Part shown: piece after piece, positions 21,087 through 25,819 of the stretch | Position numbering within the stretch: the stretch's first letter is position 1 | Layout of the letters: each line of letters begins with the position of its first letter | Source: Polyangiaceae bacterium | GTDB lineage: Bacteria; Myxococcota_A; Polyangia; Polyangiales; Polyangiaceae | Direction: 5' to 3' | Assembly (NCBI GenBank): GCA_035357995.1 | Contig: DAOPOO010000024.1 | Span: 988-64,987 of the forward strand | DNA length: 64,000 nucleotides | Translations under genes and position numbers: made by a program | The notes under the pieces: generated by a model | Told to the model about the DNA's origin: nothing | The model's input: only the letters and a program-made list of their open reading frames with translations | Databases searched by the model: none

Positions 21087-21767
21087 ATGCCAAGACGCCG
21101 TCGTTCGGAAAACGAGGTCGAAGCCGTGCGAAACCAGATCTTGGACGAGGCATTGAACTTGTTCGTGGAGGCAGGTTGGCAAGGTTTTTCCATGCGCAAA
21201 CTCGGCGCTCGCCTGGGCATCGCCGCGAAAACGGTCTACAACTACTTCGCCTCCCAAGACGAATTGTACCTCGGTCTGCTCACCCGCGGCTTTCATAGCC
21301 TCGGTCAGGCTCTTGCCAAAGCGGCCGAACCCCATACCAACCCATTCGAACGGCTCGACGCGCTGATCGATGCCTACGTGACGTTTGCCTTCGACAATAC
21401 ACACCTATACGGGTTGATGTTCACCTGGCATGTGCCCAAGTATGACGACTACGTGGGCACGGCGATGGAGAACACGGCTCGGGTCGAACTCGAGACGGCG
21501 CTCGACAGTCTCCGCCTGACTGCCACTACCATCGCTGCCTGCACCGGCACGCCGCCAGCAAGGGATGACCTGTACTTCATCACGGTTCGCCTGTGGACGC
21601 AGTTACATGGTTATATCGCAGGCATCCACAACCACCTCATCGACTACATGCATCCTGACCCGGCTTCTCTGAAAGAGCGCATGATCACACGGATCAAAAA
21701 TAGCGTTGTCCATGAGATTCTCGCTCTGAACCCCACCGCTGCGCGTGAGCAGCCAACCCTGCAGTGA
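21087..21767 (+). CDS. TetR-family transcriptional regulator.
   Basis: N-terminal HTH 'ILDEALNLFVEAGWQGFSMRKLGARLGIAAKTVYNYFASQDELY'. Confidence 0.8.
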   Translation: MPRRRRSENEVEAVRNQILDEALNLFVEAGWQGFSMRKLGARLGIAAKTVYNYFASQDELYLGLLTRGFHSLGQALAKAAEPHTNPFERLDALIDAYVTFAFDNTHLYGLMFTWHVPKYDDYVGTAMENTARVELETALDSLRLTATTIAACTGTPPARDDLYFITVRLWTQLHGYIAGIHNHLIDYMHPDPASLKERMITRIKNSVVHEILALNPTAAREQPTLQ

Positions 21768-21782
21768 GGAGGGATAGCAGCG

Positions 21783-22715: not shown

Positions 22716-25700
22716 CGTTCCCCAACACCTCTTCGTCCACTTCTTCCGGAACCGAGCATGCCATGACCATGGCCGAACCGACCGCTGTGAAGCTGCCCCC
22801 GGTGGACCCGCTGGACATGCGCCCATTTCATCCGGACCCGGCGGTGAGCGATGCGGCGCGCCACAGTCCGCAACAATTGATCGTGCGTGGGCTGCTCGGT
22901 CTCATGGCCAAGCTCTACACCTGGCACCCCAGGTTGCGTGACGAATTGCGTATCAAGGACGGTTGGATCGATCTTGTGGTCGGCATTCGCACCCGCTCTG
23001 GCTCCGTGCGCACCGGAATCCGGTTTCGAGATGGCAAAGCAAAGGCGATGGGCCGCATTCCCGAGGCCGTCGATGTCGTGCTGGTATTCAAATCCGACGC
23101 TGAAGTTACGAAATTCCTCACGGCCACGCCAACCGAGCAGGTCCTCATGACGTTGCGCAACGACTTTTACGTCGATGGCAATACATCATCGCTAAACCTG
23201 TTCGTATATCTGATTTCCCGACTCCTTTTCCGCCAGCAAATCAAGAATCTGGCGAAAGATCTTCGTAACGATAACGCTGATCGTCGCACACAAGCCGGTG
23301 CCACGAATCCTGATCTGGCCCGGCAGATGCGCGAGCGTGCGGACTACCGCATTGCGACTTCGCAAGTCGATCCGGGTGTGAAATATCTCGAGGACCCCTA
23401 CTTGCGTGATTTCAGTTTGAAGGATTTCCCGCGGCTAGCTAAGTTTTTGAACCGGCACCTCGACCATGACGCCGAGGTATGCCCAGAATTGCCGAAACTA
23501 TTGACCGAATGGCATCGAAAACACGGTTTCGAGCGAGATTCGAAGGGCAAGCCCTGGCACCCGGTGCTGCGCAAAGCCCTGGCCTATCAATATGTGATGG
23601 AGAATCGTCGGCCGATCATCCATGCCAACGACCTCATTGCCGGCACGACAACTACCAAGGAAACCGGTGTGGTTGTCTATCCGGAGGGGCATGGGACGAT
23701 GATCTGGGGCGAGCTGCTGACGGTGCCGCATCGACCTCTGAATCCTTACGGTGTCTCGGAGGAGACCCGAGAATTGCTGCATAAGGATGTATTCCCCTAT
23801 TGGAGCCGTCGCAACTTCAAGGAATGGGTGCGAGACCACTACCGTTCGCCTTTGGGCCAGCGTATCGACGACCGATTTGCGGTCTATTTCGACTGGAAAA
23901 CCGCAACCATCTCACACACGATCCCGGATTTCCCCAAGATGTTGCGGCTGGGAACGTCCGGCATCATCGCCGAGATCGAGGAAGCGATGGCTGCCGACTC
24001 GGATGAGGAGCGTAATACCACCCGGCGGGCATTCATTCTCGCGCTGGAGGGGTTGGGCACCTATTCTCGGCATTTGGCGGCGCAAGCGGCGTATGAGGCG
24101 GAGCGGGAAAGCGACCCCAGTCGGGCGGCTGAGTTGCGCCGACTGGCCGAGATCTGTAGCCAGGTGGTCGTGGGGCCAGCCCGCACGCTCGATGAGGCGG
24201 TGAATTCGGTGTGGATCACGTGGGTGGGGCTGCATATGGAAAGCACCAATGCCGGGCTGTCGATGGGCCGGTTGGACCAGTGGCTGCAGCCATATTTCGA
24301 GGCCGATATGGGCAAGTTGGAGACTTTGGAGCAGCGGCGGGCCTACACCAAACGTGCGATTGAACTGGTGGGTGACTTGATGCTGCGCTGCACGGACCAC
24401 TTGCCGCTGACTCCCGACGTGGCCAACTACTACTTTGGTGGCAGTTCCTCGGATCAAGCGATCACGCTGGGCGGGGTGACCCCCGAAGGCGAAGACGCGG
24501 TCTGCGATATGACGTATATATTCTTGAAAGTCACTGAAATCCTTAGTCTTCGCGACCCAAATGTGAACGCTAGATTCCATCTGGGCAAAAACAGCCAAGC
24601 GTACCTGAAGCGTCTTTGCGAGGTCAATCTGATCACGGCGGCGACTCCGTCGTTGCATAACGACGAGGTCGTGGGGAAGGCCTTGAGCCGCTATGGCTAT
24701 GAGGTACGTGACGTGCGTGATTGGGCGGCGACCGGGTGTGTGGAGCCGACGCTGTCGGGAAAGCATATCGGCCATACCAATTTCCAGATGCTCAGTCTGG
24801 TGGCGGCGCTGGAGATGGCGTTGAACGACGGCTGGCATCCGCTGATGGATTGGAAGGTGGGACCATCTACCGGTTCGATCGAGGCTGGCGATTTTGCGAA
24901 TTTCGACCAGTTTTTCGAGGCTTACCGGCAGCAGGTGGCTTTTCTGGTCGACCGATCGATCGAGTACAACGAGATGTTGGGTAAGGCGCATCAGCAGCTT
25001 CGTCCGACGCCACTGCTGTCCAGCCTGATCGAGGGCACCATTGCATCGGGAAAGGATGTTACGTATGGGGGAGCCAGGTACAACAGTTCTGGGGCTGCGT
25101 GCATCGGGCTGGTTGACGTCATCGATTCGATGTTGGTGATCCAGAAGCTCGTATTCGAGCAACGAGTTGTGTCATTCGCTGACCTCAAGCGGGCAGTGGA
25201 CACGAATTTCGCCAACGATCCGCTGTTATTGGCGCAGGTATCCCACAAAGTAGCGCTTTTTGGCTCGGGCAACGAAGACGCCGTGGCGATGGGCAACCGC
25301 ATTACCAAGATGGTGCAGTCGCTGTATGATCGGTATACCAACTACCGGGGAGGCCGTTATGCGGCTGGGTTCTGGTCGATGTCTACGCATGTATCTTACG
25401 GCACGCTGGCTGGAGCTTTGCCGTCGGGGCGGTTGGCGGGCAAGCCATTTACGCCAGGTCTGACTCCCACACCGGGGGCATCGCCGAACCTATTGGACAA
25501 TATCCGTGATGTGGCCAGGTTGGATCCGGCCAATATGCCGAACAATATTGCCTTCAATGTGAAGGTGGTGCCATCGGCCCATGAGTCGCGGGAGCGGACG
25601 GTCGACACGATGGCCGCGTACGTGAAGTCCTATTTTTCGCTGGGGGGCATGCAAATGCAGCTCAACGCAGTCACGTCCGATACCCTTCGCGACGCGATGG

Positions 25701-25819
25701 TTCATCCGGAGAACTATCGCAATTTGCTCGTGCGGATTTCCGGGTATAATGCCTATTTCGTCACGCTGAACAAGCAGATGCAGCTCGAGCTGATCGAGCG
25801 CGCTGAGTACGGTATCTAG
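22712..25819 (+). CDS. Glycyl radical enzyme (PFL-like fold) of unknown substrate, with an N-terminal extension of about 210 aa.
   Basis: The ATG overlaps the activase stop (ATGA). C-terminal Gly-radical motif 'LLVRISGYNAYFVTLNKQM'. Active-site Cys loop 'ATGCVEPTLSG'. The core GRE region starts near aa 215. Confidence 0.85.
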   Translation: MTFPNTSSSTSSGTEHAMTMAEPTAVKLPPVDPLDMRPFHPDPAVSDAARHSPQQLIVRGLLGLMAKLYTWHPRLRDELRIKDGWIDLVVGIRTRSGSVRTGIRFRDGKAKAMGRIPEAVDVVLVFKSDAEVTKFLTATPTEQVLMTLRNDFYVDGNTSSLNLFVYLISRLLFRQQIKNLAKDLRNDNADRRTQAGATNPDLARQMRERADYRIATSQVDPGVKYLEDPYLRDFSLKDFPRLAKFLNRHLDHDAEVCPELPKLLTEWHRKHGFERDSKGKPWHPVLRKALAYQYVMENRRPIIHANDLIAGTTTTKETGVVVYPEGHGTMIWGELLTVPHRPLNPYGVSEETRELLHKDVFPYWSRRNFKEWVRDHYRSPLGQRIDDRFAVYFDWKTATISHTIPDFPKMLRLGTSGIIAEIEEAMAADSDEERNTTRRAFILALEGLGTYSRHLAAQAAYEAERESDPSRAAELRRLAEICSQVVVGPARTLDEAVNSVWITWVGLHMESTNAGLSMGRLDQWLQPYFEADMGKLETLEQRRAYTKRAIELVGDLMLRCTDHLPLTPDVANYYFGGSSSDQAITLGGVTPEGEDAVCDMTYIFLKVTEILSLRDPNVNARFHLGKNSQAYLKRLCEVNLITAATPSLHNDEVVGKALSRYGYEVRDVRDWAATGCVEPTLSGKHIGHTNFQMLSLVAALEMALNDGWHPLMDWKVGPSTGSIEAGDFANFDQFFEAYRQQVAFLVDRSIEYNEMLGKAHQQLRPTPLLSSLIEGTIASGKDVTYGGARYNSSGAACIGLVDVIDSMLVIQKLVFEQRVVSFADLKRAVDTNFANDPLLLAQVSHKVALFGSGNEDAVAMGNRITKMVQSLYDRYTNYRGGRYAAGFWSMSTHVSYGTLAGALPSGRLAGKPFTPGLTPTPGASPNLLDNIRDVARLDPANMPNNIAFNVKVVPSAHESRERTVDTMAAYVKSYFSLGGMQMQLNAVTSDTLRDAMVHPENYRNLLVRISGYNAYFVTLNKQMQLELIERAEYGI

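Follow-up and report, generated by a model that had tools for sequence, protein, structure and literature searches.

A TetR-linked cassette with an SCP2-fold glycyl radical enzyme in a Polyangiaceae bacterium: a candidate radical eliminase for lipid-like substrates

Introduction

To our knowledge, the characterised glycyl radical enzymes (GREs) of the pyruvate formate-lyase (PFL)-like superfamily all act either on small soluble molecules or, together with small subunits, on hydrocarbons. In this work we describe a three-gene cassette encoding a TetR-family protein, a GRE-activating enzyme (activase) and a GRE of 1035 aa, found in a 64-kb stretch of DNA from a Polyangiaceae bacterium (contig DAOPOO010000024.1). 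This whole stretch is called the window below, and all positions in it are counted from its first letter. An earlier note, made from the letters alone, had described the cassette as an operon for a GRE whose substrate cannot be read from the sequence. We propose that it encodes a radical 1,2-eliminase, repressed by the TetR protein, which would convert a hydroxylated lipid-like substrate into an aldehyde or ketone; to our mind this proposal has an even chance of being right.

The closest described systems are glycerol dehydratase (GD; C. butyricum, 1r8w) and propanediol dehydratase (PD; R. inulinivorans 5i2a/5i2g; 9rco). The cassette enzyme shares with them the fold (TM-score 0.88-0.90), the Gly/Cys radical relay, the Glu of the CXE motif and an equivalent of GD His164, and a long-form activase is encoded next door in both cases. 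On the other hand, identity to GD and PD is 26-28%, the cut-off of the GD/PFL2 subfamily model TIGR01774 is missed, and the GD residues H281, S282, Y339, D447, Y640 and S642 are replaced. Unlike these dehydratases, the enzyme has an extra domain of ~240 residues with the SCP2 fold, a dedicated TetR protein with its operator, and neither a microcompartment nor propanediol/aldehyde dehydrogenase partners. Archaeoglobus fulgidus PFL2 (Af PFL2; 2f3o), whose function is debated and for which a hydrophobic substrate has been suggested, was the top match in a sequence search of the PDB (E 7e-111, 29% identity) and has the ISH..., GCVE and GGxxxxQA motifs in common with the cassette enzyme; its 776 aa, however, include no SCP2 domain, and the match begins at query residue 276.

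The choline TMA-lyase CutC and the C-S lyases IslA/IseG/HpsG resemble the cassette enzyme in the CXE motif of eliminase chemistry of the X-C-C(OH) type. This motif is kept by all GRE 1,2-eliminases and isomerases, its Glu being bonded to the substrate hydroxyl, and His164 of GD is the proposed proton donor to the leaving hydroxyl (PMC13450708). In HpsG, abstraction takes place at C2 and the C1 substituent is released, giving hydroxyacetone (PMC13450708). SCP2 domains joined to enzymes of hydrophobic substrates are present in the alkyl sulfatases SdsA1/YjcS and in UbiJ/UbiT of ubiquinone synthesis, with 11-15% identity to the N-terminal domain described here, which differs from them in being placed N-terminally on a radical enzyme. 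Such a fusion is absent from a 2026 review of the GRE superfamily, which contains no class of this kind and no GRE with a lipid-binding domain. As for the regulator, the lipid-sensing TetR repressors FasR, KstR, FadR and Mce3R offer a comparable arrangement, with an autoregulated operon and palindromic operators overlapping the promoter.

Methods

Relatives of the GRE were sought in one genome per GTDB species with an alignment of the full-length enzyme as query, used in place of a profile of the N-terminal domain, which was too variable for a genome scan; the scan gave at least 571 loci, the best 80 of which served for the identity range. Neighbour frequencies were counted by tblastn over the 62 loci with enough flank, near meaning, for tetR and activase genes, within 4 kb of the GRE gene. 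Recurrence of the operator was scanned over 1.48 Mb of related loci, a match having at least 14 of the 16 specified bases. Residue conservation was judged in 37 aligned family members, and GD residues were mapped onto the enzyme by pairwise HMMER alignment.

Results

An SCP2-fold domain at the N-terminus of the enzyme

The enzyme is a member of the PFL-like superfamily: the barrel, the glycyl radical domain (both recognised by Pfam, Table 1), the Cys loop and a nearby activase gene are all present. It exceeds ordinary GREs in length by ~240 residues, owing to a conserved SCP2-fold domain at its N-terminus, and this domain is its most informative feature. Solved GREs align with the query only from residue ~240-280 on. 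Some CutC proteins also have a long N-terminal extension, but an unrelated one, the match starting at residue 384 of the 1150-aa chain. Pfam gave no meaningful match for the isolated N-terminal 253 residues, with PF02036 absent at E up to 10. AlphaFold, applied to the full protein (pLDDT 81, pTM 0.86) and to residues 40-250 alone, predicted a confident alpha/beta domain at residues ~53-195 (pLDDT about 90), in which a five-stranded sheet is packed on helices as in the SCP2 fold. Comparison with known SCP2 domains returned values of 12.2 for that of the alkyl sulfatase YjcS, 11.4 for Archaeoglobus SCP2 (AF1534), 10.6-11.1 for human SCP2 and 10.6 for UbiJ-SCP2. Residues 1-48 are unconserved and appear disordered or of low confidence in the model, and the linker that follows the domain (residues 196-248) is conserved and carries the motif DPGV..L.DPYL....DFPR.

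The domain seems to be confined to this enzyme family. A profile of it returned fragments only from a set of 5.8 billion proteins, and an exhaustive hidden Markov model search over 1.84 billion representatives gave 295 matches, nearly all of them fragments or GREs of ~1000 aa, with no other fusion partner evident among them. Two apparent stand-alone copies turned out to be GREs split by frameshifts in long-read assemblies, so that the idea of a separately encoded domain was rejected. No plasmid in PLSDB codes for the domain, and a precomputed PF02036 match was present on one homologous fragment only (P0140).

An intact radical machinery and a divergent pocket

The RISGY glycyl motif and the GCVEP thiyl loop reported in the earlier note were located at residues 1008-1012 and 675-679, with C676 aligned with C433 of GD and C438 of PD; the glycyl motif fits the superfamily pattern R-[VI]-x-G-[FWY]. 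H402, the GCVEP loop, S1010, G1011 and Y1012 are invariant in the family, and the other predicted active-site residues are invariant or nearly so. From the intact and invariant G1011, C676 and E678 the enzyme is predicted to be catalytically competent, as had been claimed. The CXE motif of the GRE 1,2-eliminases and isomerases is likewise present (C676-V-E678) and invariant.

In the PDB search IslA (E 3e-71) came well behind GD and PD, followed by MasD (E 2e-53), TutD (E 7e-45) and PFL structures (~1e-26). The catalytic part, compared by Foldseek, superposed with TM-scores of 0.88-0.90 and 25-29% identity on propanediol/glycerol dehydratases, Af PFL2, CutC and HypD. Nearest to the enzyme, in sequence as in fold, are Af PFL2 and otherwise eliminases only. 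Most database records nevertheless present the enzyme as a pyruvate formate-lyase (formate C-acetyltransferase), under source names such as 'formate acetyltransferase' and 'pyruvate formate lyase family protein'. This assignment can hardly be right, since the GCVEP loop has a single Cys where PFL has an adjacent Cys-Cys pair (C418/C419), the match to PFL structures lies mainly over the C-terminal radical domain, and the PFL model TIGR01255 gives 108 bits against a cut-off of 994.

Indeed, the enzyme remains below every curated GRE family cut-off by a wide margin: 500 bits for TIGR01774 (cut-off 678.2), 367 for CutC (TIGR04394; 1050), 357 for PflD (1109), 356 for the hydroxyproline dehydratase HypD (NF043068; 1100), 340 and 338 for HpsG and HpfG, of the sulfonate C-S lyases and DHPS dehydratase (1000), 259 for indoleacetate decarboxylase (1100) and 173 for HPAD (1150). 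As all curated GRE equivalogs are missed, the substrate cannot be read by homology, in agreement with the earlier note.

The residues that bind the substrate in GD are mostly replaced: H281/S282 by A514/G515, Y339 by D581, D447 by N690, Y640 by W888 and S642 by M890. These replacements are conserved or nearly so in the family, and of the GD set H164 alone is kept, as H402. Loop 510-523 (E-x-x-x-x-G-L-S-x-G-R-x-D-Q) and T689 are closer to CutC than to GD; D581, however, stands at the position of CutC F395, and a trimethylamine- or sulfonate-binding set is not evident. Because the GD-binding positions are replaced and the loop and T689 are CutC-like, the pocket is a mixed one, predicted to hold a small polar cluster (H402, D581, E678, N690) beside bulky hydrophobic residues (F887, W888, M890). 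We infer from these alignments an eliminase machinery with a new substrate. The test of a known enzyme by its substrate-binding residues, which the earlier note had put forward, thus pointed away from one, the diol-binding residues of GD and PD being replaced except for the His and no curated cut-off being reached.

These same residues bear on a simpler explanation, namely that the enzyme dehydrates or cleaves a small polar alcohol, being either a divergent glycerol/1,2-propanediol dehydratase or an eliminase of an amine-derived alcohol (compare taurine to isethionate to IslA), in which the SCP2-like domain would serve for oligomerisation, membrane tethering or docking of the activase. The closest solved relatives (Af PFL2 and the two dehydratases) and the conserved CXE and His are as this explanation would have them. 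We consider it rather unlikely, given that the GD/PD binders S282, D447, Y339, Y640 and S642 are all replaced, two of them by Trp and Met, and that the enzyme falls below the TIGR01774 subfamily cut-off. The sulfonate set of IslA/HpsG (two Arg and a Gln) is not evident either, F887-W888-S889-M890 lying near the second Arg in what is a rough alignment. Moreover, the cassette comes without genes for a bacterial microcompartment (BMC), a 1,3-propanediol dehydrogenase or a CoA-acylating aldehyde dehydrogenase, and an invariant, always-fused lipid-carrier fold of 200 residues would be hard to account for with a substrate that is small and soluble.

A large family across phyla

The enzyme belongs to a large, uncharacterised GRE family that crosses phyla and has a new architecture, an SCP2 fold joined to an eliminase-type barrel. 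The search of 5.8 billion proteins yielded more than 100 cluster representatives of ~1000 aa, with 93-98% query coverage and 60-84% identity, none of them with an annotation beyond 'formate acetyltransferase' or 'PFL family protein'. In the best 80 of the at least 571 loci, identity was 56-85% from about residue 40-70 to the end, and the SCP2 domain is therefore included. The hosts are mostly Desulfobacterales, among them the cultured Desulfatibacillum alkenivorans DSM 16219 and a metagenome-assembled genome (MAG) of Desulfosudis oleivorans, followed by Smithella/Smithellaceae/Syntrophales, Spirochaetota with Leptospirales, and anaerobic Actinomycetota (Anoxymicrobiaceae, Geothermincolia); Acidobacteriota, Chloroflexota, Myxococcota and SAR324 are represented by single cases. 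We count for a link to lipids the concentration of the family in specialists of fatty acids and hydrocarbons (Smithella, Syntrophales, Desulfatibacillum, Desulfosudis oleivorans, Leptospirales and digester Spirochaetota).

Four loci (L048, L049, L050 and L077) have two SCP2-GRE paralogues in tandem, or a full-length copy beside one of 838 aa, which suggests a diversified substrate range within a genome.

Since Smithella, D. alkenivorans and D. oleivorans are alkane/alkene degraders, the distribution could also speak for hydrocarbon activation of the X-succinate-synthase type, or another C-C bond-forming reaction, with the SCP2 domain delivering the alkane or alkene. One source does label the identical protein 'benzylsuccinate synthase alpha subunit', and the debate on Af PFL2, the top sequence match in the PDB, is between glycerol dehydratase and alkylsuccinate synthase. 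Yet such a role is very unlikely. The likeness to BSS/MASS is the weakest among PFL-like GREs except for HPAD and PFL (E 1e-45 to 1e-53 versus 1e-111), the CXE Glu and the His mark eliminases, and the family is also frequent in Spirochaetota and Actinomycetota, two phyla not known to degrade hydrocarbons. Genes of a fumarate pathway (methylmalonyl-CoA mutase type) were not found nearby, and beta, gamma and delta small subunits are absent both from the window and from the recurrent neighbours. The earlier note had likewise seen neither small subunits of this type nor microcompartment genes, and a search of the window found none of either; the short open reading frames (ORFs) flanking the cassette have no Pfam match and are not credible as genes.

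Activase, putative repressor and operator

The activase scores 247 bits with TIGR02494, the general model of GRE activases, above its cut-off of 174, and reaches no substrate-specific equivalog of NCBIfam, TIGR04003 giving 156 bits against a cut-off of 496. It has the radical-SAM motif CX3CX2C at C35 and two ferredoxin-type motifs, C61-X3-C-X2-C-X3-C and C88-X2-C-X2-C-X3-C, and is therefore of the long form with two additional ferredoxin-like clusters, as previously described. An activase gene was near the GRE gene in 53 of the 62 loci. In two Desulfobacterales loci, L035 (8488-9900, 13022-14254) and L088 (4663-5742, 9292-10530), the usual activase is absent beside the GRE, which has a DUF362 protein upstream and a radical-SAM/SPASM/SEC-C protein downstream; these two proteins may be an alternative activating system.

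The TetR protein matches PF00440 (E 1.5e-11) and PF13305 (E 2.9e-11), the latter a TetR_C_33 ligand domain with a W-x3-HG motif. Its best solved relatives are the M. tuberculosis structures 6o6p/6o6n, which we take to be the acyl-CoA sensor FasR, and then Mce3R and KstR, with E about 1e-9. Against NCBIfam it is weakly similar to FasR (44 bits, cut-off 330), KstR and FadR, all far below the equivalog cut-offs. A tetR gene is near the GRE gene in 32 of the 62 loci.

The inverted repeat noticed upstream of tetR proved to be real, and to recur. It follows the pattern TAACNNNGTTA-N3-TAACNNNGTTA, in which two 11-bp palindromic sites are set in a 14-bp register, and in the window it lies 31 bp upstream of the tetR ATG, overlapping the spacer and the -10 of a putative promoter. 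It is unique within the 64 kb, 0.00 matches being expected by chance. In the related loci the dual site was matched in 36, nearly always upstream of tetR, or of the GRE or activase gene where tetR is divergent or absent; the sole outlier, in L035, is upstream of an aldehyde:ferredoxin oxidoreductase (AOR) gene. It is found 30-60 bp upstream of tetR in loci of Desulfobacterota, Spirochaetota and other phyla, usually between a TTGAC-type -35 and across the -10. The putative promoter of the cassette, TTGCGA-17-TATTGT, scores 8/12, below the threshold of a consensus scan, and is proposed by analogy with related loci, where TTGACT-17-TACATT is placed likewise with respect to the operator. The consensus scan for promoters and terminators in the cassette gave nothing convincing. 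We regard the repeat as a conserved dual TetR operator, from which repression of the cassette is presumed.

Genes near the enzyme in other genomes

Short-chain dehydrogenases/reductases (SDRs) of the classical type, of the extended type (3-beta-HSD and NAD_binding_4 'male sterility'/fatty-acyl reductase matches) or of both adjoin the GRE in 20 of the 62 loci. In the Desulfosudis oleivorans MAG (L038, 12897-14741) the gene directly after the GRE encodes a protein of 614 aa that joins an extended SDR (Epimerase/3-beta-HSD/NAD_binding_4) to a classical one, and in L074, L077 and L087 the two types are separate neighbouring genes. Both halves of the fused protein match the two halves of PRK07201, with OleD-like and HpnA-like matches as well; the PRK07201 architecture is, we believe, that of mycobacterial fatty acyl-CoA reductases. 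AOR genes adjoin the cassette in L035, L088, L082 and L060; in L082 the AOR gene is divergent from tetR with the operator between them, and in L035 it has a second operator copy upstream. Genes for FadB-like and thiolase proteins are placed between tetR and the GRE gene in a Smithella locus (L013), 3-6 loci, according to how they are counted, have an acyl-CoA synthetase gene near the GRE, and two Desulfatibacillum loci have a gene for an outer-membrane phospholipase A1 beside the cassette. L035 also encodes an alkyl sulfatase of the SdsA type, and in L001 a sulfatase gene directly follows that of the GRE.

These SDRs raise the possibility that the enzyme takes part in biosynthesis or remodelling of membrane or neutral lipids, such as the formation of ether lipids or hydrocarbons, and not in catabolism; together with the SDRs it would then modify the head group of a lipid, or a fatty aldehyde or alcohol. 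The SDR pair does look like a split fatty acyl-CoA reductase (NAD_binding_4 and adh_short), fused in L038 and with PRK07201 matches; a PlsC-like acyltransferase/hydrolase fusion is encoded elsewhere in the window, and many of the lineages that harbour the family (Desulfatibacillum, Myxococcota, Acidobacteriota) are producers of non-isoprenoid ether lipids. However, a substrate-inducible TetR with AOR, acyl-CoA synthetase and beta-oxidation neighbours is a catabolic or detoxifying pattern, the SDRs are present in only about a third of the loci, and PlsA/Ger-type enzymes are already credited with making ether bonds in anaerobes. We therefore hold a biosynthetic role to be distinctly improbable.

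Other neighbours are of interest for the small polar alcohol discussed above. In L004 and L025 the GRE follows an apparent operon of a thiamine diphosphate (ThDP) enzyme, a zinc-dependent alcohol dehydrogenase (Zn-ADH), a putrescine-type class-III aminotransferase and an APC-family permease; the aminotransferase is also near the GRE in six Actinomycetota loci, and genes for an acetate kinase-PduL-like fusion and for acetyl-CoA hydrolase/transferase occur in a few. The aminotransferase genes are, however, mostly on the opposite strand.

Layout of the cassette and of its surroundings

The three genes form one co-oriented cassette, at exactly the coordinates given previously (Table 1), and they are most reasonably taken as a co-transcribed unit. 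The gap between tetR and the activase gene is of 15 bp, and not 16 as first counted. The ATGA overlap of the activase and GRE genes holds for the start at 22712, which is preceded at four bases by a GGAGG (22703-22707), and is lost with the alternative start; records of the same protein differ on this point, one NCBI record beginning at M20 and others giving the 1035-aa form. No RNA element of Rfam was found near the cassette. Upstream of it are polA and a 311-aa protein of unknown function, and downstream a 497-aa unknown on the opposite strand and a TldD/PmbA pair.

Table 1. Features of the cassette in the 64-kb window.
Feature	Position	Strand	Remarks
Putative sigma-70 promoter	21018..21046	+	TTGCGA (21018-21023), 17-nt spacer, TATTGT (21041-21046)
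Dual TetR operator	21032..21056	+	TAACGGTGTTA-TTG-TAACAGCATTA
TetR-family protein, putative repressor, 226 aa	21087..21767	+	TetR_N HTH and TetR_C_33
GRE-activating radical-SAM enzyme, 310 aa, long form	21783..22715	+	TIGR02494, Cys motifs
SCP2-fused GRE, 1035 aa	22712..25819	+	Alternative start 22769 gives 1016 aa
N-terminal SCP2-fold domain, residues ~53-195	22868..23296	+	Followed by conserved linker 196-248
PFL-like ten-stranded barrel, residues 249-897	23456..25402	+	PF02901, E 5e-154
His402 codon	23915..23917	+	Aligned with His164 of glycerol dehydratase
Cys loop G675-C676-V677-E678-P679	24734..24748	+	Thiyl Cys and Glu of the CXE motif
Glycyl radical domain, residues 913-1017	25448..25762	+	PF01228, E 1e-22; R1008-I-S-G1011-Y at 25733-25747

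The cassette as a whole (21087-25819, + strand) has close counterparts in distant hosts. Positions 21174-25812 are collinear with positions 1-4696 of L008, from a Vicinamibacteraceae (Acidobacteriota) MAG, with amino acid identities of 67% for TetR, 72% for the activase and 85-89% for the GRE, which indicates either horizontal transfer of the unit or mis-binning of a MAG. There is also collinearity with Actinomycetes MAGs; the similarity ends exactly at the borders of the cassette, and the flanks share nothing. Judging from these alignments, the cassette was probably inserted between polA and tldD/pmbA as a horizontally shared module of three genes. About 450 bp of non-coding DNA (20573-21017) separate the 311-aa ORF from the operator, with an AT-rich stretch, ttgataaactataataaatacaacaatata, at ~20640-20670 and no Rfam match; this segment could be a scar of the insertion.

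The identical protein is recorded under 'Polyangiaceae bacterium' MAGs and under 'Deltaproteobacteria bacterium ADurb.Bin207', and the former name agrees with the myxobacterial type of genome proposed in the earlier note. Its claim of a facultatively anaerobic lifestyle was overstated: likeness to other loci is confined to the cassette, which is therefore weak evidence on the general or ancestral lifestyle of the host, and the claim rests besides on genes taken for anaerobic glpAB. The first of these indeed encodes a GlpA-like flavoprotein with a BFD [2Fe-2S] domain (8128-9813, + strand), but at 337 bits it is below the TIGR03377 cut-off of 553, and the ORF after it (9660-11057, + strand) has a very weak GlpB likeness.

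Further genes of the window, all on the + strand, were recorded apart from the cassette. They encode a FadL/TodX-type outer-membrane channel for hydrophobic compounds (5284-6837); a PlsC-type acyltransferase fused to an alpha/beta hydrolase (Hydrolase_4; 54039-55589), which may be a lipid-remodelling enzyme; two proteins with FGE-sulfatase domains (407-2650 and 33453-34751), one of them with MopE-type metal-binding repeats; and a protein of 829 aa (39216-41705) with MVP_shoulder (E 2e-27) and Vault_3 domains and no NCBIfam match. The last one is like the major vault protein and of a bacterial kind, which is unusual outside eukaryotes.

Discussion

Taken together, the recurrent neighbours, the SCP2 fold and the relatives of the TetR protein suggest a link with lipids, and the adjacency of AOR genes, with the operator upstream of one of them, suggests an aldehyde product. 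We infer that the substrate is lipid-like, that the reaction is an elimination, that the SCP2 domain supplies the substrate and that TetR acts as a repressor. Candidate substrates, in no order of preference, include long-chain 1,2-diols, alkyl- and acylglycerols, alkoxyethanols, sphingoid bases and the polyol side chains of hopanoids. Dehydration of sterols was also considered and rejected, because a lone 3-OH without a vicinal heteroatom is unfit for a CXE elimination.

It must be taken into account that several observations weigh against a lipid-like substrate. The likeness of the TetR protein to lipid sensors is weak and falls mostly within the DNA-binding domain. Beyond the activase, TetR and the SDRs no neighbour is recurrent, most of them varying from locus to locus, and neither SDR, AOR nor acyl-CoA synthetase genes were found beside the cassette in the window. 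Moreover, in 7-8 loci of Smithellaceae and Actinomycetota a class-III aminotransferase gene and an unusual acyl-CoA-dehydrogenase-like gene are nearby, to which L004 adds an amino-acid-type permease, a Zn-ADH and a ThDP enzyme, a pattern that looks more like a small amine-derived substrate. Finally, literature searches on SCP2 with GRE, TetR with GRE, PFL of Desulfatibacillum or Smithella, and Desulfatibacillum accessions returned nothing on the family; a paper on a limonene GRE was set aside, as it concerns an X-succinate synthase.

If the cassette does encode a TetR-repressed eliminase of lipid-like substrates, it may work as follows. Without inducer, one or more TetR dimers would sit on the two tandem palindromes overlapping the promoter and keep tetR, the activase and the GRE genes off, until a hydrophobic ligand, the substrate or a derivative of it, frees the repressor. 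The activase, using S-adenosylmethionine and its [4Fe-4S] clusters, would then place a radical on Gly1011. The SCP2-fold domain could hold the hydrophobic tail of the substrate, or pull it from the membrane, while the polar head is fed into the barrel. There the radical would pass from Gly1011 to Cys676, and the thiyl radical would take a hydrogen from the carbinol carbon, with Glu678 accepting the hydroxyl proton. The resulting ketyl radical would expel the neighbouring O-linked group (hydroxyl, alkoxy or acyloxy), protonated by His402, and the product radical would regain a hydrogen from Cys676 to give the aldehyde or ketone. In other genomes the carbonyl product may go on to the fatty-acyl-reductase-like SDRs, AOR, acyl-CoA synthetase and beta-oxidation, whereas the host of the window has the three-gene core only.

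A bolder version of this chemistry is that the enzyme is an oxygen-independent ether (or ester) lyase, the first GRE acting on lipids, which we judge to be quite unlikely. Hydrogen would here be abstracted from the carbinol carbon of a head group of the 1-O-alkylglycerol or 2-alkoxyethanol type, and a fatty alcohol expelled, with release of hydroxyacetone or acetaldehyde; the SCP2 domain would grip the alkyl chain, with AOR, the SDRs, acyl-CoA synthetase and beta-oxidation disposing of what is released. Anaerobic ether cleavage, as in the degradation of polyethylene glycol, phenoxyethanol and alcohol ethoxylates, has long been known from physiology only. An ether lyase of this kind, if real, would do without oxygen what alkylglycerol monooxygenase does with O2, and would be a candidate at the level of genes for diol-dehydratase-like cleavage of ethers.

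For the family as a whole, which sulfate reducers, syntrophs, spirochaetes and anaerobic actinobacteria carry in dozens to hundreds of species, a widespread mis-annotation as 'formate acetyltransferase', and once as 'benzylsuccinate synthase', is corrected here. Cultured and sequenced Desulfatibacillum strains carry the cassette, the enzyme being WP_073478173.1 in D. alkenivorans DSM 16219 and ACL02533.1 in strain AK-01; two genes suffice, and the repressor with its 25-bp operator could be used as a biosensor for the inducer. A conserved lipid-carrier fold on an eliminase-type GRE would extend radical elimination to amphiphilic substrates, and the family is a concrete candidate for the anaerobic breakdown of ether lipids, long-chain diols and surfactant ethoxylates, which is poorly understood in terms of genes.

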